From Rhynchobatus australiae (lineage: Eukaryota), in the NCBI GenBank assembly GCA_034780895.1, contig JAUZTB010000118.1, positions 56,725,228 to 56,789,227 on the forward strand: DNA of 64,000 nucleotides, read 5' to 3'. Each line of letters opens with the position of its first letter. Positions within the stretch are counted from its first letter, which is position 1. The notes under the pieces are model-generated. The model was not told the origin of the DNA. It was given only the letters and a program-made list of their open reading frames with translations, and searched no databases. Of this stretch, positions 4,301 through 64,000 are shown in pieces. The position numbers and the translations under genes were made by a program.

Positions 4301-5191
4301 GCTTGGCGATAATGATCAGTAATTTGTCGACAGCCATCGTCCAAGGACACATTTGAAAAATGACTCTTTGGTGATGGAAATTAGCCAGTACTTCTGTGTT
4401 AGCAGCTTCAGAATTCATAAACCAAAATAAACTCAAACAAATAATGAATTTTGATAGAATAAACCACTGAATAAAATTTAAAATCATGCCTTTGCTAACA
4501 AAATCTCTTGTTTGTATTGATTGAACTTTTCAGAAATCACCATCTTAATTACTTTAGTCCTCAATCTGTATTTTCTAATTTAAAAAACCCAACTCACTAT
4601 TTACAGCTTAATTAAGATGTATAATCACTGTAATGCTACTTTCTGACTTCATGCATTCTTTCACATTATAACTTTGCCGGTGTCCAGTGCATGAATGTTG
4701 ACAGTGTTAGAAAGCAGAACACATTTCATCTGCTGACACTAGTATGTATAACCAATATCAAGCACAGAGGAGCTTTGTGGGAGCAATATACATGCTTAAT
4801 ATTGCCCAAACAAGGCAGTCTGCTGCTAGTATTTGGCTGCATTAACACCTGCCAGTGATGGGCATCATTCATCATGGCTTTGGACAGAATTCAGAGGCAC
4901 TCTCTGTCTCTTGAGAGAGTGATCAGCTTTTGACTGGAGATCAAATGAGAATTATTGCTGTACCTTCTGCCTTTATGAGAGACACTTTGAATGTGTGCAG
5001 TTACACAGATGTACTGATCATACATCTGTATGTGTCCATGTTGTGAACATTGTCAGCTTATTGTGCCAAAGTGTAAAGTAAAATTAAGAATGAATACTAA
5101 ATAGTGTTATGAATTCAGTTTTATTCACATTCATCATATTTCAGAGCAAAGTAATGGGATCATATTCTGAACCAGGGGGTTGCAATGATAT

Positions 5192-5523
5192 AACAAAAGC
5201 AAAATTGCTGGAAGAACTCAACCAGTCCAACAGCATCTGTGGAAAGAGAAACCAGTGTTAATGTTTCAGGTCAGATCCTTAGAACTGGGGGGTGGGGTGG
5301 AAGCAGAAAGGTTACAGTTTTTAAATTAGAGCTGGGGGTGGTGGGGAGGAGTGAGGTGTAATACAAAAAACCACATGGAGAAAGGTTAAGAGGGATCAGG
5401 TGATAAGAAGCATGAGGACAGACTTAGCAAGGCATTTTAAAACAAAAATGGGGCAAGAAAGGGACGTAAGCATGACAATGGGAATGATGAGAAAGCATTT
5501 AATTTGAAGTTGGAAGATTCAAT
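5192..5523 (-). mobile_element. Penelope-like element 3' end (ORF end, pyrimidine-rich UTR, decayed hammerhead terminal repeat)
   Basis: Reverse complement of 5500-5523 and 5661-5699 reads GSLQPSGLNIE(F/S)SNF, matching the end of the GIY-YIG ORF at 27108-27428; terminal repeat at 5192-5290. Confidence 0.7.
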
Positions 5524-5661
5524 ACAAAACAGAAAATGCTGGAAATACTCGGTAGGTCAGGCCGCATCTGTGAGAAGCAAAACAGAGTTGTTGTTTCAGG
5601 TCGGAGACCTTTGTCAATTTTAGATTTCCAGCATCTATAGTTTTTTGATTTTTCACTTCTA
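5524..5661. mobile_element. Mini Penelope-derived terminal-repeat element inserted in another Penelope-like copy
   Basis: Minus-strand terminal repeat followed by the plus-strand tail (agatttccagcatct); flanked by gaagattcaat (5513-5523) and gaaaattcaat (5662-5672). Confidence 0.7.
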
Positions 5662-5700
5662 GAAAATTCAATGTTCAACCCAGAGGGTTGCAGACTGCCT

Positions 5701-6085
5701 TATACCACATGCCCTCTAATCCAGGGAGCATCCTGGTAAACCTCTTTTGCACCCTCTCCAAAACCATCACATCCTTCCTATAATGGGCTGACCAGAATTG
5801 AATGCAATACTCCAGATGTGGCCTAACCAGAGTTTTATAAAGTTGCAACATAACTGATTCTTGAACTCATTGCCTTGACTAATAAAGGCAAGCATGTCAT
5901 ATGCCTTCTTTACCACCCTATAAACCTGTGCAGCCACTTTCAGGGAGCTATGGACTTGGACCCCAAGATCCCTCTGTACATCAACATTCTTAAGGATCCT
6001 GCCATTAACAATATACTGTCCCTTTACATTTGATCTCCTGAAGTGCAACACATCACATTTGGCTGTATTAAATTCCATCACCATT
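5701..6085 (-). mobile_element. CR1-clade (HER1-like) LINE RT fragment
   Basis: MEFNTAKCDVLHF...QRDLGVQVHSSLKVAAQVYRVVKKAYDMLAFI in ORF 5767-6252. Confidence 0.88.
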
Positions 6086-17700: not shown

Positions 17701-18109
17701 NNNNNNNNNNNNNNNNNNNNNNNNNNNNNNNNNNNNNNNNNNNNNNNNNNNNNNNNNNNNNNNNNNNNNNNNNNNNNNNNNNNNNNNNNNNNNNNNNNNN
17801 NNNNNNNNNNNNNNNNNNNNNNNNNNNNNNNNNNNTTTTCCATGATAAATTGACCAATCCTGTGCCTCTGAAAGGGACCTGATCTCCTAATCAAGCTCCC
17901 TTTATGTCAGCTGCCTCATAGGACCCAGGATCTCTGAATTTATCTTTACATTACTTCCATGTTTTGGTGCTGCTTGAGCCAAGTGTTATAAAATTGTGGA
18001 GTTGAAGCCATACCACTCCAGCTGCAAATTTATTTTCATTTAAAAAAAAAACAGAACAAAATGCACAGCATCTTTTTCTTATAACTTATGAATTTACGTG
18101 TATTGGCAG

Positions 18110-18260
18110 GTCAAAGGTCAGTAATTGTTTACTGCACACAGATCCTCAGAGCCTCAACTCAGTGATGTTGTCATCCAAGTTGCCAGGGATGATCTACACA
18201 GCGGATGAACAATGTCAGATTCTGTTTGGTCCAACAGCTACTTTCTGCAAGGAGATGCAG
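18110..18260 (+). CDS. ADAMTS19: ADAMTS19-like exon (end of metalloprotease domain / start of disintegrin-like domain)
   Basis: Acceptor ttggcag|G, donor CAG|gtaact; 151 nt = 1 + 50 codons: [50 protein letters not shown]. [17 protein letters not shown] is an ADAMTS17/19 signature; as recalled, QSxNSVM and xEMQ|[10 protein letters not shown] fit ADAMTS19 better. Confidence 0.93.
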
Positions 18261-20139
18261 GTAACTTTGGTTTTACTGGTATGACTCCTGTTATACATCC
18301 ACCCCACTCTGATATGTTTATTGTTTCATGTAACCTGGAACTGTTTGAGTTGCTGAGTAAATTAAGATAATGTTTAATTCACTGCTGAATTTTATGGGGA
18401 CAATGTAGGTACCAAATTTTTTCCGACAAAGCAACTAGTGAGCACGTGCACATTTGTGCCAGAGTTGCCACTGAACTCATTGGTTAAGGTGCTGGCATAT
18501 ATGCAGTAAGCAAGAGCTGGTGGAAGTTTACAGGAATACATTATCATAATGTCATTCAGTATGCAATGCTGATTCGATGCCAGATCACATTCTTGACGTG
18601 AGGGCTTATACAGAAATCATTTCCTTCCATAGACATTAATTTGCATTCCACTTGCACTGTGCTGTGACAAGGAGAGGGTGCACACTGTAGGACACAACTA
18701 GAAGCAGGAAGAGGAGGGCAGTAGGGCTCATTAGGATGTCAGTCCACCCAAATTGTTCAGGGAACTTTGGTGAGGAAAAGTACATGCATTTGAAAATTAA
18801 AGCTTATTGAAATCTGCCACAGCTACCACCTCAGCACAATGGGGATCACATTGCTGGCATGGTCACAGAGCCATGGATTTTATGTATTCAGTTCCTTCCA
18901 GGTGGAAGCTGAGAATACTTGGANNNNNNNNNNNNNNNAACTATTTCTTAAGGGAGATAGTGGACTACCCCTGTTTAAAGAGAGCCGAATAAACTTTATT
19001 CTCTCTTATCTTGAAACTTTGTGACAAATACAGATCTTCACTTGGTGAAGGGTGTCGTTGATGGGTGAACAATTTTCTGTGGATGCTGTATGCCAGCCAT
19101 GAGATGTACTGCAGGCAAAAGGGATCCTTTGATGTATGGCCATAGGCTGTGCATCAGGTACTCCAATGCCAAATCAGTGTCAGTTGCACACTAGAGTCAT
19201 GAACTATTTAATCAACAAATACCCATTTGCTGCCCAATTATTTTGTGCTGGTGGCTGAAAGGCAGATGGTATGGTGAACAGAAAGAGAATGAAGGTATCA
19301 CAACTGTTGCCATGATACTGGGCACTGGACTTTTTTTTAAAGAAAAACATAGCCTCAATTAACCATTCTCCATCAATTCCATATCTTTGTTTCTCCTTAT
19401 ATTCGGCATAGCCACAATGCAAACTATCAGCCACCATGNNNNNNNNNNNNNNNNNNNNNNNNNNNNNNNNNNNNNNNNNNNNNNNNNNNNNNNNNNNNNN
19501 NNNNNNNNNNNNNNNNNNNNNNNNNNNNNNNNNNNNNNCCATGCCCCCCAAAAAAAGTTTATCCATGTTGCTTAGAAATACTTCCACCTATCTTTTGCAT
19601 TTCATTAGTGGCTTCTTTCTATGCGGCTGTGACTATCCTAATGTTCGTTTGCGTATCTACCCAGAGCAAGACAGCTGCCTTCAGTGGAGAAAACTGTAAA
19701 TGGCCTTGGACAATGACCTTGACCTTCAGCTCTGGCTGCACTATAACAGCTTGCTAGTTTTCCATGTTCTTTTGGCTATTCTAGTGCTCTTGTGCTTTGA
19801 AACCCTGGTTGTGGTGAAAGTAAGGCATGTGCTGTTTGTAAACCAAAAGAGGTTGTGAGAGAACTGTGTTACAGAAAGGAAGATTACATTCGAGAATACC
19901 ATCATCTTCAATGTTATCAGGCCTGCTGCTATCTGTAACCATTCCTGCACTAGTGTGCACACTTTCCTCCATTCCAATGTCATTCTGCACCTGGTTGTGA
20001 TTTCCGATTGTACACCACTTGTCACTGCTCTGTAAGAATGTTTGATGATGTGTCCATTGTGGCTGAATAGCTAATAAACTGTGATATGTGAAGTGGATCA
20101 ATATTAAGTTTGTGAGGTTGAGTTGAATCTATTGGAGTA

Positions 20140-20325
20140 AATTAGTTTGGTAGGTTAATTAGTCACTGTAAATTGCCCCAACTGTATAGGTGAGTGGTAG
20201 AATCTGGGAGGTGGGGGTATGTTGGGAGAATAATATAGAATTAGTATATATTTGGTACTTGATAGTCAGTATAATGGGTCAAAGAACCTGTTTCTGTAGT
20301 GTTTGGCTCTGTGATTCTTTGACTC
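20140..20325 (+). mobile_element. V-SINE 3' half with CR1-type tail
   Basis: ggtaggttaattagtcactgtaaattgcccc...atgggtcaaagaacctgtttctgtagtgtttggctctgtgattct. Confidence 0.7.
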
Positions 20326-21954
20326 CTAAATCCTGTGGGATAGAGATTACTGATAGGTGAGTGAACGGAGTTGTGGTTAATTGACTTTTCAGGATTGACT
20401 TAGGCCCAGTTCAGCATACAGGACTGATGGCATTTTTGGGAATATCTCTGTCTAATGCACTGGAGCTTTTGCAAAGGGATCATTGTAAGTGTGCCTAATT
20501 TGCTCATTGACCTGTGTGGATATATCTCCAGCTGTCACCATGCAGGGGCATGAATTATTTTCCAGGGTTGAACCATGACAACTTAGCTGAAGTGGTAAGG
20601 AACCCTCAATAATTATTTTATTGAAACAATAAAGATCCTCTATTTCTTTCACTTTTTACAGTTGGCAAATACTACACATCAGTTGGATTGTGTGCTGCCT
20701 CGCTTAAGACAAAAGGTTCAAGCTGAACCAAACAATCCATGGCCTAGAAGTTGTTGTGCACCCAAAAAGATGGGGTTATTGGAGCTTGTGCCTTGGGTGG
20801 GGATGCTGGGGAGAGGTTGGACTGATGCTTTACCTTGGGAATGTGGGAGAAAGGAGAGAGATTAGAACTTGTATCTTGGGTCAGGATGGTGGAAAAAGGC
20901 ATTGTGGCCAGGATTAGAGGTGGTGGGATGGTTAACAATGAGGTAAGTAGTTGAGAAATGGGGATTGAAAATCAAGGCCTGCCTCAGAATTTGTATTGGA
21001 AAATGAGGAAATGAAAGGGTCTGTCACCTTGAAGATTGGGGCTAGCAGCCTGGGCTTAGGGTTGTGTAAGGGCCAGGCTTCAGAATGATTAAAAATAAGT
21101 GTGATTGCATTGGAAAGACCATGATGGTTGCTCCGAGGACAACTTAGTCCAAGTTCCCCTGCAGTGTTCCAAAAGGAATGTTGCATGGAGAATTACATCA
21201 TCGTGTGTGGGTGACTCATATCCAGAGATGCCCAGTTGAATTTCTGTTCAACATGAAATGACCAAGAAGTAGTCATTACTGTGTTTCACTCCNNNNNNNN
21301 NNNNNNNNNNNNNNNNNNNNNNNNNNNNNNNNNNNNNNNNNNNNNNNNNNNNNNNNNNNNNNNNNNNNNNNNNNNNNNNNNNNNNNNNNNNNNNNNNNNN
21401 NNNNNNNNNNNNNNNNNNNNNNNNNNNNNNNNNNNNNNNNNNNNNNNNNNNNNNNNNNNNTTATACAGACTGCCTTGTTTTTACCCTCGATTATTGCAGT
21501 TGCGAATTTTGTTATTACTAACAGGAGAAACCTACAGACACTAGAAGTAATTGTTTTTCTTTATCTGGTGACCTTCAGAGAATTGATTTGTTGACATGTT
21601 GTGCCAATCCAACTCATGTTTTGTGATACTAGTGAGGTCTTTGACCTGGAAAGTTCAACCCACTGTTCAGCTTCTCCCTGAGTGTGTGACGGCCGTGTTC
21701 CACACCACTTGGTGAACGCTCAGTGACGCTGTCAAATTCCCAGCCTCCAGTAAATCCCACATCACACTGGTCTCATTGGTGTGCAGGAGCTCCCTTCACC
21801 GGCCAGCATCAAATGCAGGTCCCGCAAAAAACCTGCATTTCAGCTTTGCAGGCAATACTTCTCTCCCATTTATTATAATGGAATGTTGGGAATAAAAATA
21901 TAACAGGATTTAAAAAGACAAAAGTTTACTTTAATTGAGCTCTTCAAAACCAAA

Positions 21955-22251
21955 TAAGATAAGATCGGATATCTTTATTAGTCACATGAACATCGAAACA
22001 CGTAGTGAACTGCATCTTTTGCGTAGAGTGTTCTGGGGGCAGCCCGCAAGTGTCGCCACGCTTCCGGCACCAACATAGCATGCCTGCAACTTCCTAACCC
22101 TTTGGAATGTGGGAGGAAAGTGGAGCACCCAGAAGAAACCCACACAGACACAGCGAGAACATACAAACACTTTGCAGACAGCGGCGGGAATTGAACCCGG
22201 GTCGCTGGCGCTGTAATAGTGCTACACTAATGGCTACACTACCACGCCCCC
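21955..22251 (-). mobile_element. tRNA-derived V-SINE, full length and young (CpG-rich), (TCTTA)n tail type
   Basis: Same family as 7784-8071; head ggtagtgtagcc..ttagtgtagcactattacagcgccagcgacccgggttcaattcccg. Confidence 0.9.
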
Positions 22252-24883
22252 CCATCCATTACCTCACAAAATAGATCTAGGAATTAAAACTTTAGTCCAG
22301 TTATGAAAGATGATAACAACTGCCTCCTTCAAAATTATAGAACATATTAAATATATATCTGTGTACACTGTTACAGATGTAAAATCCCTACTGTACATTA
22401 GTACAAAATAATCATGCAAACANNNNNNNNNNNNNNNNNNNNNNNNNNNNNNNNNNNNNNCTTGTACACTGTGCCTTTAACCTTGTTGGAGAGATGAGTG
22501 TTGCTAAGGGATGGGAATGGAGTGGACTGGGACACAGATAGGTGCTCACCTTGCCATCACTTCATTTAGAGTCATATCCCCAAACAGCAGTCAGATTGAA
22601 AGTAAGTTTTGTCGCCCCCTTTTTTGACTTGGATAAGCAAGCAGACATCACTGATTTCAAGATGTTCTTTCACATTCATCACTACTTTATAAATAAACAA
22701 AAGGTATCTCAAACTGCAGCTGCTTCTGTGCTGCCTTGCCCCAGAGTCCAAGACTGAGCTAGAGACCCCATTCCTTCCCACTGACTCGTTTCATTAGAGG
22801 CGTCCTGACTCTGACCCGACCATCATCCCCAGCAGTCTGGCCAACACCCCACCCTGAATATCTGCCCAACCAATTATCCTGATTCCCTGTCTGATTCCCC
22901 TGCCCCTCAGTAATCCTCTAAAATCCCCTTCCTGTTCTCTATCTCCATCCCACAATAAATAAAGGTGAACAGCTCATGGGATAATGCTAATGTTCTATGA
23001 AGACAATGCAACACATATTCCTGTACCTGTCATTATTGGATCTCCAGAGTGGACATAATTATCCCACTTAATTTTATCCGAATTGAAATAGCCAGAAATT
23101 CACGTAAATAAAAACAAAAAATACTGGAAACACTCAGCAGGCCATACAGCATCTATCAAAAGATATGACATTTATTGTTAGGTTTTCTGTCATTACCAAC
23201 TCTCGGAGTATCGCTTCTCCCTTCCCCCGCACCCTGTTTCATTTCAAGAATTCCAGACTAACCAGAAGCCCTGTTCTACCCCATGGTGTCACTCAGTCAG
23301 AAACCACCCACCACTCAGTGGTCCAGATGTGTTGGAAAACCTCAGCAGAGCCTCGCTTGCCTGGTGGCTGACACAGAGACCAGGTGAATGCAGCTTCCAG
23401 TGCTGGGGCGAAGGACCAGCGAGCAGGTAGTCGAAAGGCTGGTGTTTTTGTAATTGGCCCATGGCTCTGCTGAGCCAACCACCTTCCAACTCAAAATGCA
23501 GGGGGGCATTGGCAATTACAGCAGAAACTATCAATATTGGGTTAACAGCTCATCCTTCCATACATTGTGTATTCAAACCCATTCGAGAACATCCCATTAG
23601 GGTTACTCTTTTAAAAATTAAAAACACTATGCTTAGATTGAACAATTAAATAAGAACTACTTAATGGCTTCTAACATTGGAAGGTAAATTAGTTCTTTTG
23701 TCTTAGAAGTGGATTGCCTTCAGTACATTTCAACATCATTATATTTGGTCCATTACACTAAGTCATAAGTTATCAGAATTCAAGTAGCTTAAAAATCTTG
23801 CTAATCTTTTTTGATTTTACCAAGCCATTAAGTACTTGACTTATTTGAAAGTATTTTGTATTGTATGTTAACTGTTGAAATTGTATTGAATTAATTCTTG
23901 GAACTGCACTTTGAAGTACTTATTCTTTTTCTGTTAAATGAAGAATAGGGTGCTGAGGTAATTTTACAGATGCAATGGACTCTTTTTAATCAGGACTGAA
24001 GTGAATCCAGGTTTAATAAACTTGAATGCAAGAAGTCTGAGTGGAATTGACAGATGTTGCTTCGCTCATTTCATAGTGTGATCATTGTGGGAGCTTTTGT
24101 TACTGATCGNNNNNNNNNNNNNNNNNNNNNNNNNNNNNNNNNNNNNNNNNNNNNNNNNNNNNNNNNNNNNNNNNNNNNNNNNTTAGATGTTTCCCCCTCA
24201 TTTCCCCCTCATAATCATTTCAAATTATATTTTTAGTTTGTTATTTTTCAGTGACAAACATTAATATTTCTGACACATTGCCTCTATGACTTGAGCAGAT
24301 TACGCAGGAAAAGCCTCATAAGAGGTCATGACAAGTCAAGGATCAAAGTCCTCGAGGTGGTCTATTGGCAGCAGGGTGTTTGTAAAGGAGGGGATAAGGT
24401 TATAGTGGGAGTTCCATGCATTGTGAGTTCTTGTGACTTTGCTGTTCCAAGGGAACAAGGAAAACATTGATGCACTCGGCCTGGCATACAGGCCTTTGTA
24501 ATAATGATTCCGAGTCCTGGTTGAATTCTAGACTTGAAGAGAATTCCTTTCTATTTTTTTTCCAAGGTGTCACTCTAACTCACTGCATGCAGCCACCTAT
24601 GCTGCACAGTGTAGCATTCTAACATTTTGCTGTGTTAAAAATGCAACACAATTCCTTGTCCCACACAAGACATCTGCCGCTTCTGTATCCTGAGGGGGGC
24701 ACTGGTAGATGTAAAGTGTCTGGCATTCACCCAGTCCAGCAGGGCCAGCAACAAGTAATAACCAGCAACCCAAGAAAAACATTTTGCTAGCAGATTTCAC
24801 AACCTCAGGATGTTATGAAGCTCACTACTGCAGTCCAGGAAATACAAGCAAATTTCACACTTCATGTGTTCTCGCATTAATGC

Positions 24884-25330
24884 GGTCCATCTCTGACACT
24901 TCCCTTCCCTTTCTGGATCTCTCTTTCTCTCTCTCAAGAGATAGACCAGCCACTAACATCTTTTACCAGCCTACAGATTCTCACAGTGACTTTGGCTGTA
25001 CATCCTCTCACCCTGCCGCCTGTAAGGATGCCATTTCTTTTTCCCAGTTTCTTTGCTTCCACTGCATTTGTTCCAAGGATGAGGCCTTCTGCTCTGGTGC
25101 CTCTGATATGTCCTCCCTCTCCCTGAAGTGTAACATCCCTCTGCTATAGTCGATGGAGCTCTCAACTGTATTTCCTCTATTTCCCTCATGTCTGCTCTCA
25201 ACCCTCACCTCTCTGCCTGGACTGAACAGATTTCCCCTAGAACCCAAACTAACCCTCCCCTCCCACTCCCCGCCTTCATATTCAACACATTATCCTTCGC
25301 AATTTCTGCCAGCTCCAACATTATTTCAGC
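24884..25330 (+). mobile_element. Penelope-like element, RT thumb/linker part
   Basis: SISDTSLPFLDLS...IFYQPTDSH...TSSHP..CKDAISFSQFL...ICS is a typical PLE RT C-terminus; continues at 26951. Confidence 0.8.
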
Positions 25331-25676
25331 ACTAGTCACATAAAGTAGTTATACAGCACAGAAAAAGGCCCTTCATCCCAACCAAGGTGCCTACCTGAGC
25401 AAGTCCCATTTGCCAGTGTTTGGCCCATATCCCTCTAAGCCTATACCTGTCCAAATGTCTTTTAAATGTTGTAGTTGCCCCTGATTCTGCTACTTCCTCT
25501 GGCAGCTCGTTCCATATACCCACCACCCTCTTGTGTATAAAATTTGACCCTCAGATCACCTTTAAATCTTTCCCCTCTCACCTTAAACCTATACCCTCTA
25601 CCCTGGGGAAAAAGACGGTGTCTACCTACTTTAGCTGTCAGACCGTGGGGATTTATCCATATTTAATGGACCTCAA

Positions 25677-25900
25677 TAAACACACACAAAATGCTGGAGC
25701 AATTCAGCAGATCAGGCAGCATCTCTGGAGGGAAATGAAGAGTCCATGTTTCAGGCTGAGACCCTTCATAAGGTCTGGTGTTATGCCCTGAAACATTGAC
25801 TGTTCATTTCCCTCCATAGATACTCCCTGACCTGCTGAGTTCCTCCAGCATTTTATGTGTATTGCTCCAGATTTCCAGCATCTGCAGTCTCTCCAGTGTC
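25677..25900. mobile_element. Fold-back mini element (inverted Penelope terminal repeats)
   Basis: Left arm acacacaaaatgctggag..cagcatctctggagggaaatgaa..atgtttcagg is the reverse complement of right arm cctgaaacattgactgttcatttccctccatagat..ctccagcattttatgtgt. Confidence 0.8.
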
Positions 25901-26187
25901 TGCTTTATGCATCCCAAGACTGCCAACACCTCCTCTTTTGTAATGTGAGTCTGTTTCAGGACATCATTATTCTCTTCCCTGAACTCCCAAGCTTCCATGG
26001 CCTTTTCCATGGTAAATACAAATGAAAAGTATTCATTTACGACTTCACCCATTTCCTGTGGCTCCACACATAGATTACCTCACTGATCCTTAAGGGGACC
26101 TTTTCTCTCCCTAGTTACCCTTTTTCTCTTACTATACTTCTGGAATCTTTCAGGATTCTCCTTTACCTATCTGCCAAGGATATTTCA

Positions 26188-26400
26188 GGGCGGCACGGTA
26201 GTGTAGCGGTTAGCATGACGCTTTGTACATTCTCCCCATGAATNNNNNNNNNNTGGGTTTCCTCCGGGTGCTCTGGTTTCCTCCCACATTCCAAAGACAT
26301 ACGGGCTAGTAGGTTAACATGGGTGTAATTGGGTGGTGTGGGCTCATTGGGCCGGAAGGGCCTGTTACCATGCTGTATAAGTTAAAATTTTAAAAAAGTT
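26188..26400 (+). mobile_element. V-SINE (internally deleted) inserted in CR1
   Basis: Head gggcggcacggtagtgtagcggttagc, V-domain, tail gggccggaagggcctgttaccatgctgta; candidate TSD atatttca (26180-26187) / atatctca (26404-26411). Confidence 0.85.
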
Positions 26401-26950
26401 ATAATATCTCATGTCCCCTCTTTGCCCTCCTGATTTGCTTAGTAAGTGTCCTCCTACATCCCTTATGTTCCTCAAGAGATTTGCTTAATTCCAGTTGCCT
26501 CGACCTGACATATGCCTCCTTTTTCCTGACCAGAGTCTCAATATCCCTCATCAACCAGGGCTCTCTACTCCTACCAGACTTGCCCTTAACTCTATCAGGA
26601 ACATGCTGGTCCTGAACGCTCCCTATTTAAAAGCCTCCCATTTACCAGATGTCCCTTTACCTGTGAATAGCGTCTCCCTATCAACCTTCACAAATTCCTC
26701 TGTAACGCCATCGAAACTAGCCTCGCCCCAGTTAAGGACTTGTGGACCAGTCCTATCTTTTTCCATAACTATTTTAAAACTAATAGAATTACATTCACTG
26801 GCCCCTGAGTGTTCTCCCATTGGTACTTAAGCCACTTTCCCACCCTCATTTCCCAAGTGGAGGTCAAGTGTTGCCCCCTTTCTAGTACGGTGATCTACAT
26901 TTTGCTTGAGAAAACTTTCTTGGATGCGCTTGACAAATTCTGCCTATCCT

Positions 26951-27706
26951 TGCACATCTTCCCTTCTCCCCTTTCTCCCTGTTCCACTCTTCCATTGCCA
27001 CCCACCACTCTCCATGCCATGGCACCATCCCATGTAACTGGAGGTGTAACTCCTGTCCATTCGCCTCTTCTCTTCCCACCACCCAGGGACTCAAACAACC
27101 ATTCCAGGTGGAGCAGCGATTTGCTTGCACTTCTTCCAATCTCATCTATTACATTCGGTGTTCAGTATGTGACCTCCTCTACATTGGAGAAACCAAACAC
27201 AGATTATGTGATCACTTTGCAGAGCATCTGCACTCAGTTCACAGCAGTGATCCTGAAGTGTATATAGTAATCCAGTTGTACCCTCGATCTTACTCCCGAT
27301 TGTCTGTTTGTGGCCTCCCCTACTGCCATAGTGAGGCCCAAAGTAAACTAGAAGAACAACATCTTATCCTTCTTCTGGGCATGTTGCAAACCCCTGGAAT
27401 GAACAATGAATTCTCCAGCTTCAGGTAAACTGCTCTCTCACCAATGTTTCCCTTTATCATGCCTCTTTCCCTTTCTCACCCCATTTCTTTAAAATACTTT
27501 GCTAGTGATCAGTGCTCACAATACTTAACACCTAATCTGTCTAAATTTATCTCCAAATAGTGTTCTGCTTGCACCTCACTCTTCCTTCTGCTTTGGAATC
27601 CTCCAATCTCCCCCGAGTTCTGAAGAATGGTCCCTTAACATACAACATTGACTGGCTTCTCTTTCCACTGCTTGACTGGCTGAGATCTTCCAGCATTTCT
27701 TTTTTT
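26951..27706 (+). mobile_element. Penelope-like element, GIY-YIG endonuclease, 3' UTR and terminal repeat
   Basis: ORF 27108-27428 CTSSNLIYYIRCSVCDLLYIGETKHRL..FAEH...LEEQHLI..LGMLQTPGMNNEFSSF (GIY-YIG); decayed hammerhead repeat gttctgaagaa..caacattgact at about 27617-27655. Confidence 0.88.
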
Positions 27707-33461: not shown

Positions 33462-33688
33462 ATTATCTGCCTGGTTAATCTACAACCCAATGTCATGAAC
33501 ATTGAATTCTCCAATTTTCATGTAACCTGCTACCTCCCCTTATCCCTTTCTTTCCTCCTGGTCTACCCTTCCCTCCTTCAACTTGCAATCACCCCCCCTG
33601 ATTCACCTGGATCCACCGATCATTTGCCAGCTCTTACCCCACCCCTTCCCCTCAGCCCCTTATATTGACTATCTCCCCTCTACTCTTA

Positions 33689-33726
33689 CAGTCCAGATGA
33701 AGGGCCTCGATTTGAAACGTCGACTG
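33689..33726 (+). ncRNA. Minimal type I hammerhead ribozyme motif (U4 mutated to A)
   Basis: cagtc-cagatga-agggcctcgattt-gaaacgtc-gactg: perfect stem I (cagtc/gactg), GAAAC-GUC cleavage context. Confidence 0.7.
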
Positions 33727-34303
33727 TCCACTTCCCTCTACAGATGCTACCTGACTCACTGAGTTCCTCCAGCAGTTTGTTTTTGCTACAGATTCTTGGG
33801 GGCTAGCATGAGTTATATCCTGCTTGTTAAATTTTGAATTGAAACAAACCTAGAATGACAAATTAGAGAAAAGACTAGGTTATTCAATCTGTTTTTAAAT
33901 TCAGATGCTATCTCTTGATTCAAGAACAAACACCCAGACGATTGTTAAGTCGATGATTGCTTCTTAAATTGTGGCTGGTCATTAATAAGACTGCAGAACA
34001 TTTCTGCATTTGACTTAGTAGCCTCTTTCTGACAACCATCCGATTGAGACTAAATAAGTAATTGTTGAGTGCAATTTAAAGGTACATCATTTGTCACCAT
34101 TCATCACATGTTATTGGTTCAATGAGGATTTTGCAAAGCTTTAGAGACTTTCTTGAACATTCAGTCAGGAATTTACCAACAGCCAACCAGGTCCAAGAAC
34201 CTGTGCATTCTCATTCATTCACGGAATCATCCTGAAACCAGTCATCTTGTGCTACCCTGCATATTGTGCACTCTCAGGGGAAGTGGCTATAAGGAACTCT
34301 TGT

Positions 34304-34600
34304 CGCCACTTCCAGATTCCATCTTCTTCAGCCCTATGTCACATCCACCTATCACCTCCCAGATTCTTACATCATTCCCATTCTTCCCCTCCCTCACCTG
34401 CCTATCACCGGTCTCACCTGGATCCACCTATCACCCACCAGCTCATGCTCCACCCCTTCCCCCCACCTTTCATTGACTGGCTGTCTGCCCTCTTTCTTTC
34501 CAGTCCTGATGAAGGGTCTCGACCTGAAACATCAACTGTCCATTTCCCTCTATAAATGCTGCCTGACCCGCTGAGTTCTTCCAGCATTTTGTGTGTTGCT
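34304..34600 (+). mobile_element. 5'-truncated Penelope-like insertion with TSD
   Basis: Pyrimidine-rich UTR plus hammerhead repeat; flanks aaggaactcttgt (34291-34303) and aaggaactcctgt (34601-34613). Confidence 0.82.
34501..34538 (+). ncRNA. Minimal type I hammerhead ribozyme motif (intact CUGAUGA/GAAA core)
   Basis: cagtc-CTGATGA-a-gggtc-tc-gacct-GAAAC-atc-aactg; differences from the inferred consensus are CpG-type transitions. Confidence 0.75.
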
Positions 34601-35285
34601 AAGGAACTCCTGTAAACAGGTTCATGACGATTGCATTTGTACTTGAATGCTAAATCTATGGGTACCTGGTTTAATACCACGAAGCTAGTCAAATTCTGGT
34701 CATCATTTAGAACTAAAATTATATTCTAACAGGTCTTATTACCATTCAAATAAACAGGTCTTATTACCATAAAACCATATAGCTGTTTTTACCTTTTAAG
34801 CAAAGTGAGACCTCCAGAGTTTAAAATTAAGAATATTTAATTAAAAGTAAAATCGTATACAATATTATTGAAGGAAAAATGTAATATTAAAAAAGACAAA
34901 TAAAAGAATGAAAATGTTCCAAAAATTATTTTTTAAAATTCCAGCAGTTATTAAATTCTAAAGCAAAGGGATATAATTAAACTTTCAGCATCAGAAAGGT
35001 TATTTGGAAGAAATTATCCCTCTGCTAAAAATTCACAAAATACTTGTCACATCCAGGTTAACTTTTACTGATAAGTATTAAGTGAATTCAGCAACTTTAT
35101 GGCATTTCTGTATCTTACTGCTAAATCTCCAAGTAAGATACTAGCACAGCAAAGTTTATGGATGACCAGGTCAAGTCAGATGGCAACTTATGATTTCCAC
35201 ACTTAATTGAGCGTATGCTATGTTTGCTGTTGATTGCTGTGTGATTTATTCCTTTGTACTGCAAAATTGGCATCCAAATTAATTA

Positions 35286-35534
35286 TAAAAATAGAATATG
35301 CTGGAAATACTCAGGAAGTCAGGCCACATCTGTGGAAAGAGAAACGATCAATGTTTCAGTTGGAGGCCCTTCATCAGAACTCTGATCTGAAATGTTCTGA
35401 AGTAGGGTCCTCTACCCAAAATGTTAATTCCTTTTCTCTTCCCACTGACGTGGCCTGACCTGCTGAGTATTTCCAACATTTTCTGGTTTTGTTTTGGACA
35501 GCCAGCATCTGCAGTTTTTCTGATGTACATATAT
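35286..35534. mobile_element. Fold-back mini element with back-to-back hammerhead-derived cores
   Basis: Minus arm gttCTGATGAagggcctccaactGAAACattgatc...; plus arm gttctgaagtagggtcctctacccaaaatgttaat...; candidate TSD attaatta (35278-35285 / 35535-35542). Confidence 0.82.
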
Positions 35535-35619
35535 ATTAATTACTTCTCTGAAAACGATAAACATTTAATGATTATCTCAGGGTATGTCATAATATTATCT
35601 CCTTTTATCTATGTTGCAG

Positions 35620-35721
35620 CATGTTATATGTACCGGACTATGGTGTAAGTTAGAAGGTGAACAAGAGTGTAAAACCAAACTGGACCCACCACTAGATGGA
35701 ACTGAGTGTGAACGAGAAAAG
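35620..35721 (+). CDS. ADAMTS19: ADAMTS19-like exon (disintegrin-like domain)
   Basis: Acceptor ttgcag|CAT, donor AAG|gtaaga; 102 nt, phase 0-0: [34 protein letters not shown]; in frame with both neighbouring exons. Confidence 0.95.
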
Positions 35722-35971
35722 GTAAGAAATCCAAACTCCATATTTAAAATAGTTCTCAATTCTGCTTTTATATCTTTTTCTTGAAAACTTTCCAAATGCA
35801 GATGTTTCCAGTTGTGTCCCAAGCTCCTTGTCTCTGAAGAATGATGCAGAACCTGTAAGCCACCAATGTATGTCAACCATAATTGGGAGGGGAAATTGTG
35901 GAGCCACACAATTACTGACACAATACAAAAAGAATTGTCTCAGTTTGTTAACAAAATCCCAGGCATGAAAT

Positions 35972-36135
35972 CAAAATAGCAAATGCTGGAAACTCTTGGC
36001 AGGCCAGATAACATACATGGAAGGAAAATCAATGTATCAAATTGAAGACTCTTCAGGTCTGTTTCTCTTTCGACAGATACTACCTGATCTGCTGAGCATT
36101 TCCAGCATTTTTCCTGATTTTATGTCAGATTTCCA
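35972..36135. mobile_element. Fold-back mini element (same family)
   Basis: aaatgctggaaactcttggcaggccag.. versus ..ctgatctgctgagcatttccagcattt; flanks ccaggcatgaaat / ccagacataaat. Confidence 0.72.
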
Positions 36136-39100
36136 GACATAAATATGACATTGTAAGTTTTTAAATGTTATCCAATCTCTATGGTAGCCTTAAGATGTGT
36201 TTTGCAGTTTAGGGTACAATTGATTGGTTATTCGTTAATGCGACTGGTCCACTTAAAATTGATAAAATACATTATGTCAATGATGTGTTAATGGAGGAGG
36301 AAATGCTATTGACTTTGGTGCTTCAATCCTCATATTCACTCTCGACACTGAAATCTGTAGCTTTCTCAAATTCTTCCTCTGCCTCCCAAACTGATGTTGA
36401 TTTTACCTTGAAATTCCACTTTGTGTGAACTTTATCAAATGTGATTATAACCTCTAGTGAACTGCATGATCAACTTTTCATTTGGGATGTCAACAAGTTC
36501 ACAAGGATCAGTTGACACAATATTTCTTTTATAAAAATACATTTTGAGCTAATTATTAGACTTGTCCCAGTTAGGTACTCAAGTTTGCAATTGAATATTT
36601 TCATTATTTTTTTAAGCCATGATGTTAGACTCGTAGGTCAAGTTGCATAGCTTAGTTTTGCCTCATTCTTGTACCTGGGTGCAAACATCAACTTACTTGT
36701 AAGACCAATTTTCATTGATCCACATGATCGTTATTAGCATTTTACAATAACAATTCTTTCTGCAATAAATGCCATCTTCTCTCAGAATTCCTCCAACTTG
36801 AAATCTGTAAATCACATTGGACCCTAGTCAAGGTCCACAGCCTTGATCTTATGCAAACAGAGAGAGATGAAACGGGAGTCGAGGAGTGGGAACACTGGTA
36901 GCAGGCTTCCAGTCAAATAAGATTAGGACCAAGCCCTGTCCCACAAGGAATTCTAAAATGAAAATTGAAAACTAATTGTTAATGTGGCTTGGTATATCAC
37001 AGATACGCTACCATAACATTTTGTCTCTTACTTCAAATGAGTAGGTAATCATGGAGAGTCAGACCACACTTTCTCAATATGCAAAAGGACAAAGTTCTCC
37101 TCCAAGAGCATGCATTTCTGAAATTATCCCTGCAATACTTGGTGAAAGTAGAGTTACTTGCAGAGTACATGTCCCTGTATCCTGTTTCATCAGGATTCTT
37201 CAGCTCCAACCTCGGCTTACTGGGTTAGTGTGACATTCCCATTTTCTGTTGCCTTGTATTGTGAGATTGCCAATTCATGCTAAATTAGGAAAATGTTATC
37301 CTTTGTGTCCATGCCAAATGAAACTGAGACTGCTCAAAATCATTATGCGTTGGAATACTTCAGCCAAAACACAAAGAAACTTTCAACCATCTATCTGGAT
37401 TTGAACCCAAAGTAAAAGGTCACTTAGAAACCACTGAACCACCCAATCTCTTGTGGTTTGGAGCTTTTTCTATTAATTTATTGAGTGATTTTACTTGCTT
37501 TACTTGGATTTCAGACTAGCAAACATTTGGAATTTCAATTAATTTTACTCAGGGTAACCTTAAGTTCTGTATTTTAGTTAATTTATTCATGAGTATGATT
37601 TGATCGTGAAAACTCTTTGAGCAGAATTTTTAACTTCTGGGCAGAACTGAGAACTTGGGAGTCAGTTTTATTTATCTGATCTCAATTCNNNNNNNNNNNN
37701 NNNNNNNNNNNNNNNNNNNNNNNNNNNNNNNNNNNNNNNNNNNNNNNNNNNNNNNNNNNNNNNNNNNNNNNNNNNNNNNNNNNNNNNNTTCAAAAATGAA
37801 AGCCACCGCAAAATTAAATTCTAAACCAAGGCAACGCTTCCCATTAAACCATGTCAAATACCACACACACCTGAACTGGTCGTCATTGTGCATCCTTCAG
37901 AGCTTGCCTTAAATGTGCCTTTCACGGTACTGGTGCTCCCATGCAGTCGTTACCACGGGCTGCAGCACATGGGCCAGGGGTTTCTAAGTTGAGACTTCAG
38001 ATGTTGTTGGAGGGACAGACGTCTTCAGCAATTCTGGGGTAAGTTGCCCAGCTCCTTTTTCATCATCTCACCTTGAGTGGCTGGAGTGTGGACTGACAGA
38101 CAAACAGCAAGATTGCAGGAGGAACGTCACAGCTGAAGTCTCAAATCCGGCCATGCTGAGACAGAACAGAAGGTTTCTGCTCTAAGAGACACTACCGCAT
38201 TCCCCAGGCAACAACGCAATCACATTTAGTACCAAGATTCTGGTCGTGCTCCCATCCTATCTCTGCAAATGGTTTGAACACTGGACTCCTTTGCCTTCAC
38301 TATCTAACAAACACACTGCTTGGAAAGCCACCATTTGGCCCATTGTACCAAAAGAGCTAATTGAATGGTCCCACTCCCCTGTTCTTCCTACATATCCCTG
38401 CAAATTTTGCCCCTTCTTCTGTTCCAATTTGACAGTTACTATTGCTCCTGTTTTTACAGGGACATGAGAACAGAAGAAGGCTATTTGGTTACTCAAGCTT
38501 GTTGCCCCATGTAAACAAGAACATGACCAATTCATAATCCATCTTCATCAAAATGATTTTGCCTCATATCACCATGTTGGATTTAAAATTAGCACTCCCC
38601 CATAACAATTACCATTTGCAGAAGAAAGAAAATCAAAAGTACAACATAGGACCTGAATGATGCTCTCTAAATGCAACTTCTCTTCATTTTGAAGACACAA
38701 CATAGGTGGCTTCCAAAAGTGTGTTCACTTGGGATTTACCTACAAATATTGATGCCCTGTTGATGATGCCAGCCCTTCCTTTTGAAAAATGACCAAGCAA
38801 ATGTTCTCATTACAGAAAACATATTTTCTGAATTCAGCTCTTATAACAACATCAGTCAATAAATATAGAATAATAAAGAAATTTGATGACTGTCGGTCAG
38901 AAACCTGACTTGGCCTTTACTGGGGATGTGCCAACACTTCATGAAACAGCCACCATATAGAAAAGATTCAGCAGGGTTTTCTGTTTTGTCCTTCCGCAGT
39001 AATGTGTGAGGACACAGTTACCTTGAGGATGCTTTGAAGGAAAGGCAGCTTGGTTCACCGTGGATGTCAGCTGAATTTAGAACAAGAGAGGACGGTTAAT

Positions 39101-41020: not shown

Positions 41021-41059
41021 TGTCATATTGAACTAAAGTGCTAGTATGTCTTAAAATAA

Positions 41060-41150
41060 AAATAGAAACCATTGGAAATACCTAGCATGTCTGGCAGCAT
41101 TTGTGGAAAGAGAAACGTTTACGTCTCAGGTCAAAGTCCTTTCAACAATG
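41060..41150 (-). mobile_element. Penelope-derived terminal repeat copy, decayed
   Basis: ttggaaatacctagcatgtctggcagcatttgtggaaagagaaacgtttacgtctcaggtc. Confidence 0.6.
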
Positions 41151-41409
41151 TTCTGCGACTGTTGAATTTAAATATTACTTGGAAAACAACTGTTCCATTT
41201 ATTTTTCAGATCCCTATAAGAGAAACATTTCCTTAAATGATTAATTGATATTTTCTATCACCTGCTAACAAACTCCTGTTCATATTTACAATTAATTATG
41301 AAGTTTGACTGTAACGTTTCAGTGAATTCCTCTGGTGAATTTTAATGTAATTTGATTGCTATGCTTGTTGGAAGTAAAGACAATTACGGTAATCTTTTCT
41401 CCTTTGCAG

Positions 41410-45714: not shown

Positions 45715-46723
45715 AAGTTTTGGGCATGGGTCTTAATGTGAAAATGAGGGAAATGAAGGAAAAGAAAGGTGGGTTTTAATGAAGATCTTGTACTTTCTGT
45801 AGGAAGGTTTATTTAGGGAAGATGCTTGCATTTTGTGACAGAAAGAAACATTTATTTATATGGTCATTAGAAAGAACTGGGAGGTCTTCACTATTTAATG
45901 TGGTATAGTTCATCGACAATAACTTGCTTTTTATGGTACTTTTAATGTGATCAAATGCATCAAAGCATTTTATGACTTTACAGGGCAGGACTAAAACTGG
46001 GCATTCTAGATAGCTCATTGCAACACATCATATTGAATACTCTAAATATTCTAATAATCTGCAATATTAATAAAGACTATATGGTAAAGGTTGAAGTTGA
46101 AACAATTTATAAATAAATAAAATTGATTATATTACACAAATCCATTGAGCATTTGAACCGATAAAAAGTCAGGACTAACCGTAATCTGTGTTTGGCAAAA
46201 GACCTGTTTAAGAGGATACAGTTTTACAAGAGATTTACTTGCAAATAACTCATGATGATTTGCATCTCATCATAATGAGATATAACATCGAGCACCCATT
46301 TATTCTAATCCTACGCTAATTCCATTTTATTCTCCTCACATTCCTCTTCAATATTATGGAGATAAAATTGGCATAGGATTTACCCAAACCCAAAATCTAA
46401 TTTGTCACATTCTGACTCTACTGGTTAGAAGATTTAAGAAACATTATCCGGAGCTAGTTCAAAATTCTATGGCAATAAATAGATAGCTTACTTGATTAAG
46501 TAGAGGAAAGGCTGAAACCAAAAGTTGGAATTCTGCAGGAAAAACCCGTAGCAACCACTTTTTAGTTTATATCTGTGGATTATCTAGCAAGCATTAGAAA
46601 GAAGTTGGACATAGAAATGTATCAGATCTCCTCATTGAATGGGAAGGCTTGTAAAAGGAGTCATAAAGAAGAAACTTTTCATGCAGATGACCTGAAAAAA
46701 TACAAACAAAACAAAAATAAACC

Positions 46724-47036
46724 TTTGATCCATCACCCCAGTGGATCTGCTCTCCCCTGCTCCCCTGCTCCTGCCTATCACTATCTCTTATCTGCATCTA
46801 CCTATCACCACCTAGTTCCCACCCCACCTCCCCCCTTTTGTCCACCTATCACTGCTCTGCTTATCCCTCCTAAATATGGGGCTTCCCCTTTTCCTATCTT
46901 CAGTCCTGAAGAAGGGTCCTGATCCAAAACATTGACCGTCTGCTTTTCTCCAGGGATGTCACCTGGCCTGCTGAGTCCTTCCAGCATCACAGTGTTTTTC
47001 ATCTAGATTCCAGTATCTGCAGTCCTTTGCTTCTCT
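46724..47036 (+). mobile_element. 5'-truncated Penelope-like insertion with perfect 11-bp TSD
   Basis: aaaaataaacc at 46713-46723 and 47037-47047; hammerhead motif cagtc-CTGAAGA-agggtcctgatcc-aaaac-att-gaccg at 46901-46938. Confidence 0.85.
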
Positions 47037-48227
47037 AAAAATAAACCAATAAAGGGCATCAGTTGGCATACTTGTAGCATCCTTCATATCAGTCAAACAC
47101 ATAGAAGAGAGTGGCAAAAAAAATAAGATGGAAAGAAAATCCTGTAAAGAGGATGAGGAATCAAGGAATCCAACCATATCCGGTTTATACTGTTTTCCAT
47201 TTATACTATTTATACTGTTCCATTTATAAAGGTTCCATTTATACTGTTTTCTGGTGCAAGTGGATGTAGAATGATTTGTTTGGTTCAAAATTCAACCAAA
47301 GTTTATTCCACAGACTACTAATGATGATATTCTGGTAAAGTCTAGCCCACATTGATGGTGCTGTCAACATTGATTTCAAGTGCAATGTTAATTAGAAGTA
47401 TGATGGTTTACAGTGGACAGTGTAAATTGGGCAGCAGTAAACCAAATAAAGCACATTCTAGAAACTGTGGGTAAATGTTACATCACAGGGACATATCATC
47501 TACTCTTGTCCTACTGATTGCTGTTCCAGATGTTTTCCTTTGTTGTAGTATTAAATATGGAATATTTTATGTTAAGTGTGCACAGGGGAACTTATAATAT
47601 AAAAAAAATTAAGGACACTTCCCAAAGTGATAAAAGAATTATGAAGTAGTTTCAATCCTTGTCCATTGATTGCAATGCAGGCAACTTCTTGATCATCAAA
47701 GTGATTACTGCCTGCACCAGTATAATTATTGACTGCGTCAGGGGGTCTAACTTCTTGTAACTTGTCAGATCCAGTTATGGTTAGCCAGCACTGAGATAAG
47801 CTAGCCTATACCTCTTAAAAGTAGGTGCACTGTGGCTGGAGGAAGTATTGATACGCATTCTAGAAGTGAATCTGATCTCAGAAATTGCAAAGAATAGCAT
47901 AACCTAGATAAAGAGGGCTCTTAATGTACTGGAGGCCCTATTAGAAGAAGTAAAAAAACGAGAGAGGTGTGCTTTAGATAGTGGAGCAAAATCCCATCAA
48001 GGCACATATTCTGAAGGCAACTGGTGCAGGTAGGTGGGGAGCTCAGTGTCGGAGCTCAAGCTCAAGGATCCAGTTGCAGTTCATGTGGTCAAGATCAGTG
48101 GATGTGTTTTCATTTGCATTATGCCATCAGCTGCACAGCTAGCTTCAGAAATTATGCACTTCACTGCACCGCCACCTCTTGCCTATGAATGATAGCTATC
48201 AATTAGGACTTGTACTTAACATGCATT

Positions 48228-63245: not shown

Positions 63246-63544
63246 GCAGATTCTCAGCAAATTCTTATCCAGCAGGTGTCAGATTATTTATCCTGCAGAA
63301 CCTGCCTGGTTGATCGTAAAATTATTCTGCTGGGTCAGAATAGTTCTTTATCTAAGATACTTTGTATAAACTTTAACAGGCAGCTATACAAGGTGATCAA
63401 AAGGCAAAACTCCAGAGGGGCTGGAAGTTTGCAGTTAGCTGGCACCACCACATGGATTCCTAACCGTTCAGTTTAAAGAACGGAAAAGTTGAAAGCTTCG
63501 CCCAAAAGCCTGATTTAAGCCAAATCAAAACACTGTTGTTGCCG

Positions 63545-63702
63545 CAAATCTGAAGTAAAACTAAAACAATTGTGGGAACACTCAGCAGGTCAAGCAACAT
63601 CTGTGGAAAGAGAGAAATTGAGTTAACATATATGTTGCTGAACTCTCATCAGAACAGTTCTGATGAAAGATCACTGAGTGGCAGTGTTAACTCTATTTCC
63701 AC
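63545..63702. mobile_element. Fold-back mini element with abutting hammerhead cores
   Basis: Perfect central palindrome TCATCAGaac-a-gttCTGATGA (63646-63666); outer arms gtggaaagag..gagttaaca / tgttaactctatttccac. Confidence 0.78.
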
Positions 63703-64000
63703 CTCTAATTCAAAGCTAAGGGCAGACGGTGACACGGTNNNNNNNNNNNNNNNNNNNNNNNNNNNNNNNNNNNNNNNNNNNNNNNNNNNNNNNNNNNNNN
63801 NNNNNNNNNNNNNNNNNNNNNNNNNNNNNNNNNNNNNNCTCTAATTCAAAGCTAAGGGCAGACGGTGACACGGTTATCTCACAGCTTTAGTGACACAGAT
63901 TCGATTCTGGCCTCGGTTACTGTCTGTGCATTTTTTTGCACATTCTGCCTATGATCTTGTGCATTTCCTCTTACCCCAATTGTGTAAGGGGCTGGTGGGA

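Follow-up and report, generated by a model that had tools for sequence, protein, structure and literature searches.

The fold-back unit at 35286-35534 of the window (the whole stretch of 64,000 nucleotides analysed here, animal DNA with 39.6% G+C and 29 assembly gaps) is best explained, with a probability of roughly 0.8, as a tail-less inverted end of a Penelope-like element (PLE) joined to a 5′-truncated, tailed copy, both left by one short-stopped insertion of an autonomous PLE and not by a self-propagating family. The original prediction had named six fold-back units in the window, and all six were found in their places, each combining two pieces of one module of ~125 nt, one piece per strand. 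The last of them exists, but it starts at ~63528 instead of 63545 and its tailed arm is on the minus strand. The same prediction had proposed that the units are ambisense ribozyme hairpins forming a family akin to MITEs or retrozymes, a reading that was not supported, given the unlike junctions, the differing sequence variants, the buried ribozyme and the single core per strand. Its alternative, i.e., independent, truncated and inverted PLE insertions, gained support from the unlike junctions and from the private letters that the two arms of a unit have in common in three of the four testable units.

The terminal-repeat module and the ordinary PLE ends

A profile of the module, made from nine window copies, gave 21 matches in the 64 kb, 18 of them at E<1e-6. 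The module sits 3′ of a pyrimidine-rich UTR at 5184, 27620, 33691, 34503 and 46903, and the same ORF end that is found upstream of 27620 also precedes 33691 and adjoins 5184. The arms of the fold-back units are homologous to the terminal-repeat (pLTR) ends behind the GIY-YIG remnant (Table 1), which bears out the Penelope origin originally proposed; mobilisation by the PLE RT/GIY-YIG protein, as had also been suggested, is supported as likely. Longer protein homologues of the GIY-YIG remnant were sought and none appeared at E≤0.001, three other ORF remnants of the window gave no Pfam match, and no parent RT ORF was identified within the 64-kb window. A decayed ORF-like stretch at 24715-25400 (+), without a Pfam match, could by eye be a C-terminal remnant of a PLE RT.

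The direct-only PLE ends at 34290-34613 and 46713-47047, of about 320 bp each, are bounded by target-site duplications (TSDs) of 14 and 11 bp, so that the hairpins have short, truncated but uninverted PLE insertions as neighbours. Between units 35286 and 35972 lies an exon at 35620-35721 (+; 102 nt, AG/GT borders), which codes for a portion of an ADAMTS cysteine-rich domain 2 (Pfam ADAMTS_CR_2, E 2.4e-7), and both units are therefore likely intronic. Rfam gave no match at E≤1 across the window, and scans with the arm motifs gave no loci in viral contigs, metagenome contigs or prokaryote genomes.

Table 1. Features of the window related to the fold-back units. Columns in the descriptions are those of the module model.
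Positions	Strand	Feature	Remarks
5186..5720	-	Older PLE end (tail-less module, UTR, ORF end), host of the 5524 unit	
5524..5659		Fold-back unit, inverted columns 7-95 and tail-only direct piece 97-125	Nested where the ORF of an older PLE (minus strand) ends
25677..25895		Fold-back unit	Inverted arm 82% identical to its partner, 81% to the ordinary PLE end 34503; no TSD found
26934..27706	+	Ordinary PLE 3′ end: GIY-YIG endonuclease remnant, pyrimidine-rich UTR, hammerhead module	
26934..27428	+	GIY-YIG remnant ORF	Pfam GIY-YIG E 0.026, below the curated cut-off; atlas 0.96 to GIY-YIG clusters
33470..33801	+	PLE ORF end, UTR and hammerhead module, direct only	Profile match, sequence
34290..34613	+	5′-truncated direct-only PLE end: UTR and near-intact minimal hammerhead (34506-34533)	14-bp TSD, 1 mismatch
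35278..35285 and 35535..35542	+	Candidate 8-bp TSD copies of unit 35286	Weak
35286..35381	-	Inverted tail-less PLE pLTR-end arm of unit 35286, columns ~3-95	
35350..35377	-	Minimal type I hammerhead motif of unit 35286, core letters kept, helices I-III damaged	Motif scan, alignment
35382..35393	+	Central spacer of unit 35286, by eye short pieces of the direct arm	Weak
35394..35522	+	Direct arm of unit 35286, dead hammerhead core, 3′ tail, columns ~2-124	
35966..36136		Fold-back unit (35972), inverted columns 9-100, direct 36-110	Possible 11-bp TSD, 2 mismatches; in organisms B, D, E
41050..41215		Seventh candidate: inverted arm and decayed tail-like piece	Unnoticed in the first reading; fold z 0.6
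46713..47047	+	5′-truncated direct-only PLE end with tail	Exact 11-bp TSD
52367..52560		Fold-back unit (52368), near-symmetric tip, distinct sequence variant	CUGAUGA absent from both arms
63528..63702		Fold-back unit, opposite orientation: tailed minus arm 63528-63653, ~48-nt partner arm, 1-nt tip	

Anatomy and folding of the units

In all six units an inverted, 5′-truncated end of the PLE terminal repeat stands head-to-head with a direct one. The units are 136 to 249 nt long, and they lack ORFs as had been stated, the longest ATG-started frame in any of them being of 60 aa. The outer ends are nearly constant in position: the outer limit of the inverted arms lies at model columns 94-100 in six of seven units (the seventh candidate included) and that of the direct arms at columns 110-125. 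A tail on one arm only is clear in five of the six units, the partner arm of the 63528 unit being too short, and the tails found in the window measure about 15-28 nt. The window copies are about 20% decayed, with arms that differ by 10-31% from the majority sequence.

At its other side, the inverted arm of each of the seven window units ends within about -3 to +11 of the hammerhead core, and in none of these units, which had been picked for shortness, does an arm reach into the UTR (~200 nt). The arrest of the arms near the core, with none in the UTR, may reflect that selection for short units, a pause of the RT where the ribozyme folds, or a template that is short and has a constant 5′ end.

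The units were folded and compared with 60 dinucleotide shuffles each, with z-scores decreasing in significance in the order: 25677 (-11.6), 35286 (-10.8), 52368 (-9.6), 35972 (-5.1), 63528 (-3.3) and 5524 (-1.7). Five of the six named units folded better than their shuffles; the exception was 5524, because its direct piece consists of tail only. In a separate run, unit 35286 gave a z-score of -9.9 and none of 200 shuffles folded as well. The candidate at 41050-41215 folded no better than its shuffles.

At the centre of unit 35286, three CTGA words occur in 35376-35400. The centre can be read as a symmetric tip with a 2-nt loop, followed by a jump to a piece that ends at the hammerhead cleavage site and by a return to the core. 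This pattern is possibly due to slippage, and it is not significant without a fixed register. With respect to the last unit, an assembly gap lies 36 bp away, and the sequence that follows the unit (63703-63860) recurs beyond the 100-N gap at 63739-63838. The scaffold join may be an overlap, which makes the right end of the 63528 unit uncertain.

The hammerhead motifs

The core CUGAUGA..GAAA..UH is kept on the minus arm of unit 35286 (35350-35377) and the plus-arm core is decayed, with A9 and G12 changed, just as the original prediction had described this unit. The occurrence of back-to-back cores as a general feature was not confirmed, since they are recognisable on both arms in only two of the six units (35286 and the last one, in which both cores lack GAAA). 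Considering all twelve arms, the complete set of core letters is retained in one and lost in eleven. Neither arm of 52368 contains CUGAUGA; in 5524, 25677 and 35972 the direct arm begins downstream of it. The best-kept motif of the window, at 34506-34533, has an extra base after A9, as in the PLE minimal hammerheads of PMC4209133.

The predicted cost of freeing the minus-strand core of 35286 is 16.6 kcal/mol in the unit versus 5.1 kcal/mol in the arm alone, and nine of ten core letters are predicted to be mostly paired, except N7 and A9. Because of the head-to-head layout, a transcript entering from either side reads the antisense arm first, so that the core would be paired on emerging. The hammerhead is thus predicted to be unable to fold within a transcript of the unit. 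No same-strand tandem hammerheads occur in the units, which have at most one core per strand, and hence a unit-length RNA could not be cut out. The available text of PMC4209133 reports that single minimal hammerheads showed no cleavage in vitro, and that of PMC11167929 that hammerhead cleavage is protein-assisted and that insertion does not need it. The hammerheads of the units would be passengers.

Junctions and kinship of the arms

The inner ends of the arms differ in six of six units. Expressed as model columns of the inverted and the direct arm, they are 7/97 (5524), 5/15 (25677), 3/2 with a spacer of ~12 nt (35286), 9/36 (35972) and 11/16 (52368), with a 1-nt tip in the last unit; the earlier remark that the central junctions differ applies to the whole set. 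No junction is shared among the six window units and the eight paralog joints shown (of 235 rows), bearing in mind that the samples are small and the joints short. A non-autonomous PLE family of the MRC1 type would be expected to have many copies with one junction or internal structure in common.

The number of non-majority letters that an inverted arm shares with its own partner, compared with the best other arm, was 8 versus 3 in 25677, 7 versus 2 in 52368, 5 versus 4 (marginal) in 35286 and 2 versus up to 5 in 35972. Private letters are therefore common to the arms of one unit in three of the four testable units, which indicates that the units likely come from different templates. Between different units, the similarity of the inverted arms is 49-72% (at least 60 overlapping columns), and the units fall into at least three sequence variants. 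The inverted arm of 35286 is 79% identical to the direct arm of 35972 versus 71% to its own direct arm, and the inverted arm of 25677 is as near to the ordinary end 34503 as to its own partner.

Target-site duplications

The 8-bp direct repeat that had been put forward as the TSD of unit 35286 is present, but it does not rise above chance, as 7.5% of 400 AT-matched window pairs reach 8 bp; it lies about 12 nt past the tail end. The case of 5524 is firm, with a 13-bp TSD (5511-5523 and 5660-5672; 2 mismatches, null 0.25%) across which the ORF of the host PLE resumes. The possible 11-bp TSD of 35972 has a null of 5.8%. Altogether, the six units, copies about 20% decayed, display one firm TSD (13 bp), two weak ones (8 and 11 bp) and three cases of none. 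The 8-bp TSD was considered as a sign of hAT-type mobilisation and rejected, as it is at chance level and the lengths vary. The 5524 TSD begins with ATT on the PLE sense strand, and the unit sits in the last codons of the endonuclease ORF of the older PLE.

Orthologous and paralogous copies in sequencing runs

Contigs of four sequencing runs (of 15) were aligned to window positions 35101-36300 only, and 15,480-26,755 contigs per run fell on this module stretch. Contigs of run X1 matched 35101-35479 and 35464-36031 with 0 differences, and X1 may be the source sample of the window itself. An assembly artefact as the origin of unit 35286 was rejected on the basis of these exact contigs and of the presence of the unit in other organisms. 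Organisms B, D and E have units 35286 and 35972 at the orthologous position, at a divergence of about 7%, and no empty site of either was seen in these three. In organism E, a contig of 100 nt matching 35363-35462 spans the centre of 35286 with 8 differences and 0 gaps, which suggests that the spacer is likely present there. Functional conservation of the hairpin was rejected, as the 8 differences in 100 at the centre compare with 62 in 840 downstream. The orthologous placement, together with a centre as diverged as the flank, indicates that the insertions are old and shows no sign of constraint.

Concerning the paralogs, eight of the 12 joints given with letters (12 of 235, all from run X11) are inversion joints, and all eight differ by eye. 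The X11 inversion tips range from near column 40-55 to a core-edge, tail-only form like that of 5524. The commonest joint (35345 to 35453; 15 of 365 joints listed) is represented by 6-12 contigs per run, and it coincides with the commonest alignment break points, so that it neither proves nor excludes a shared junction. No paralog spanning both arms was seen among the 32 listed of about 82,400 pieces, the copies being decayed and contigs breaking in repeats. The depth in X1 was 230 in the central bin versus 55,859-206,320 in the arm bins, figures that are not readable as copy number or junction sharing. One paralogous X11 contig (joint 35479 to 35305) appears to run from direct arm to tail to inverted arm, i.e., tail-to-tail, the reverse of the usual layout.

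Similar units in metagenome contigs

A scan of metagenome contigs for back-to-back cores gave at least 117 loci, of which 22 were kept because their arms aligned next to the core (score ≥35). Those dropped were L117 (same flanks as L081), L054, L056, L057, L065 and L094 (repeat not adjacent to the core) and the low-scoring rest. The 22 fold-backs, among the matches listed, all come from other organisms and are unrelated sequences. In nine of these 22 listed matches, a direct repeat of 11-18 bp is flush with one arm and lies 26-53 nt beyond the other. The symmetry of the tips was counted in 20 of the 22, two with centres under 7 nt being left out. Tips with at most 3 unpaired letters numbered 10 of 20 among the matches listed, versus 4.0 expected (P 0.002 under a simple null of independent stops), and five of those 20 listed tips were loop-free.

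Two sets of loci deserve separate mention. L001, L024 and L059 (around 500-760) belong to one hammerhead-tail family and have three different tips, with flanking repeats of 12-15 bp; they are a clean example of hairpin formation per insertion. On the other hand, L006:306-377, L069:19-90 and L074:601-672 have an identical, loop-free, palindromic tip of 12 nt across two subfamilies (among the matches listed). L006 is of a different subfamily from L069 and L074 and its own arms are identical in 79 of 79 positions, while the flanks of L069 and L074 differ where comparable. The shared tip lies on a 4-nt palindrome, plausibly a hot spot. L012 and L073 are related to these three loci, and all five are young units with back-to-back minimal hammerheads; the tip of L012, also without a loop, falls on a different 4-nt palindrome that lies farther outward. 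The symmetric and the shared tips bear on the priming of PLEs, and they leave room for a short non-autonomous template.

Proposed mechanism

In the mechanism proposed here, the PLE protein would nick an AT-rich target on each strand, at a distance of about 8-14 bp, which would give rise to the TSD. Reverse transcription would have two possible starting points close to the pLTR 3′ end, one that includes the ~25-nt tail and one that omits it, and would halt after about 30-125 nt, often near the 5′ edge of the hammerhead. By twin priming, each nicked end would prime a cDNA and the two cDNA ends would anneal at a short self-complementary site; alternatively, the inverted arm might be formed by copy-back of one cDNA on itself. 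Asymmetry may come from later deletions at the hairpin tip. Tip deletions after insertion could yield unique junctions from one ancestral tip. Twin priming is slightly favoured over copy-back as the origin of the inverted arm, because it would explain the loop-free tips, the fixed outer ends and the flush TSDs, and because both strands are extended in PMC11167929. According to the available text of that paper, the PLE protein cuts and extends both strands in vitro, a dimer is predicted and the tail is traced to two internal RT start sites. In the corresponding parts of other papers, symmetric tips were observed and interpreted as self-priming (PMC3846280), and the formation of head-to-head PLE repeats is described as undefined (PMC8557442). 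No paper that treats twin priming together with Penelope, inverted and GIY-YIG was found in the literature searched.

Weighing of the explanations

The reading of the units as truncated insertions of an autonomous PLE is favoured because the module follows UTR and ORF ends and the ORF at 26934-27428 is GIY-YIG-like; because the outer ends fit both the one-sided tail described in PMC8557442 and PMC3846280 and the two RT starts of PMC11167929, as far as their available text goes; because the junctions are unique, own arms share private letters, and TSDs occur on 5524 and on the direct-only ends; because the cores are decayed or buried and 22 fold-backs of the same layout occur among the metagenome matches listed; and because the metagenome tips are symmetric beyond chance among those matches. 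Against it count the arm stops, which are tighter than expected from random truncation (in units picked as short), the arms of 35972, which share no more private letters with each other than with other arms, the nearness of the 35286 inverted arm to the 35972 direct arm, a firm TSD in only one of six units, the tip common to L006, L069 and L074, and the fact that the parent RT ORF was not identified in the window. An alternative is unlikely, though it is the one to be taken most seriously: a non-autonomous lineage of short PLEs, in which a hammerhead-plus-tail RNA that begins just 5′ of the core is copied in trans by the PLE protein, the hairpin is rebuilt at each insertion and the tips are eroded later. 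Equally doubtful is its explicit form, a hairpin mini-Penelope class with an RNA of ~130 nt and a fixed 5′ end, mobilised in trans, for which a dimeric PLE protein would prime at both target nicks and unite the two cDNA ends at a palindromic microsite. If true, a perfect hairpin with the same tip at each insertion would explain the common tip of the three loci and the arrest of the arms at the hammerhead edge. The lineage of short PLEs agrees with inverted arms that end at or inside the hammerhead's 5′ edge in seven of seven units, with the high number of contigs per run on the module, with the tip common to three listed metagenome loci of two subfamilies, and with the available statements that integration in trans needs no more than the cis sequences of the pLTR (PMC3846280) and that there are non-autonomous PLEs in Chlamys (PMC8557442). 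However, the paralog tips are spread over the module and all eight shown differ, one of the at least three sequence variants is nearest to an ordinary, UTR-bearing PLE end (81%), the shared metagenome tip is on a palindrome that could plausibly be a hot spot, and none of the 32 listed pieces spans both arms, the last point being weak on account of decay and contig breaks.

The remaining explanations are far less probable. That PLE ends were inserted twice, independently, to make up each unit, or that the units go back to longer inverted PLE copies which were rearranged after insertion, is very improbable: PLE ends are dense in the window, nesting does occur (5524) and a TSD is absent from three of six units, but the arms of one unit have private letters in common in three of four units and a TSD encloses the whole of 5524, as likewise in nine of the 22 metagenome units among the matches listed. 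An ambisense retrozyme, in which both strands would self-cleave to a unit-length or circular RNA that is then reinserted, can appeal to the cores recognisable on both strands at 35286 and in the last unit, and to a 2026 preprint (bioRxiv 10.64898/2026.07.22.740005) whose available text derives animal retrozymes from PLE pLTRs and records them in one chondrichthyan. It is even less credible, given one core per strand versus the tandem same-strand hammerheads that define retrozymes, a core predicted to be mostly paired, the core letters lost in eleven of twelve arms and the lack of in vitro cleavage reported for single minimal hammerheads (PMC4209133). Just as hard to sustain is a MITE moved by a DNA transposase, which would account for small, ORF-free units with inverted arms, many copies and an 8-bp candidate TSD, but not for asymmetric ends with a one-sided tail, lengths from 136 to 249 nt, arms that are PLE ends, and a TSD length that varies (13, perhaps 8 or 11, or none).

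It seems reasonable, on the reading as truncated PLE insertions, to annotate the units as PLE debris; a new class of element does not hold up. In repeat annotation, they could be mistaken for MITEs or for ribozyme genes. Since the tips, tails and TSDs can be mapped in tens of thousands of tiny copies, these could serve to separate twin priming from copy-back.

Comparison with known systems

The MITEs of DNA transposons are short, non-coding, fold-back and present in high copy number, and they have flush terminal inverted repeats, a fixed TSD length and a uniform size. Unlike them, the window units have no flush symmetric termini, fixed TSD length or uniform size, and they derive from the end of a retroelement. 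The look of the repeat suggests a cartilaginous fish as host. A fixed-junction family of PLE hairpins in cartilaginous fish was not found described in the literature searched, although Repbase, Dfam, subscription journals and supplements may hold entries.

Non-LTR retrozymes (PMC7229834; bioRxiv 10.64898/2026.07.22.740005) resemble the units, so far as their available descriptions go, in being non-coding, related to PLE pLTRs and provided with type I hammerheads. They differ in being head-to-tail tandems with at least two same-strand cores and circRNA, whereas the window units have a head-to-head layout in which each strand carries a single core, mostly broken. The PLE PAc (Poseidon, Anolis carolinensis; PMC11167929) is of a different PLE family, and the likeness consists in the two internal RT starts for tailed and tail-less ends and in the AT-rich target. 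The target of 5524 recalls the preference of PAc for cutting at ATT near the ORF-pLTR junction, this being a single case here. Metazoan PLEs carry minimal hammerheads (Cervera and De la Pena 2014, PMC4209133) that are likewise of type I, have one additional base following A9 and have a helix III that is palindromic. The available text of that work, in which no cartilaginous fish is mentioned, describes dual minimal hammerheads on opposite strands, about 100-700 bp apart, and ties them to likely truncated PLEs; compared with these pairs (Schistosoma), the window cores are only 1-20 nt apart.

The units also resemble the inverted-pLTR insertions of endonuclease-positive PLEs, namely Pen2a/Pen2 of Adineta vaga (PMC3846280; scheme in PMC8557442, Fig. 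2), in which the available text depicts a head-to-head, inverted, 5′-truncated pLTR, a tail on one arm, a variable TSD (8-10 bp in that case) and palindromes at the inverted junction. In comparison, the window units are restricted to the last 30-125 nt of the pLTR and have no ORF, their tails are of about 15-28 nt versus 30-40 nt, and they are old, show about 20% decay and occur in very large numbers. The layout itself, i.e., head-to-head repeats with a one-sided tail, a TSD and minimal hammerheads on opposite strands, is already published in the available parts of PMC3846280, PMC8557442 and PMC4209133.
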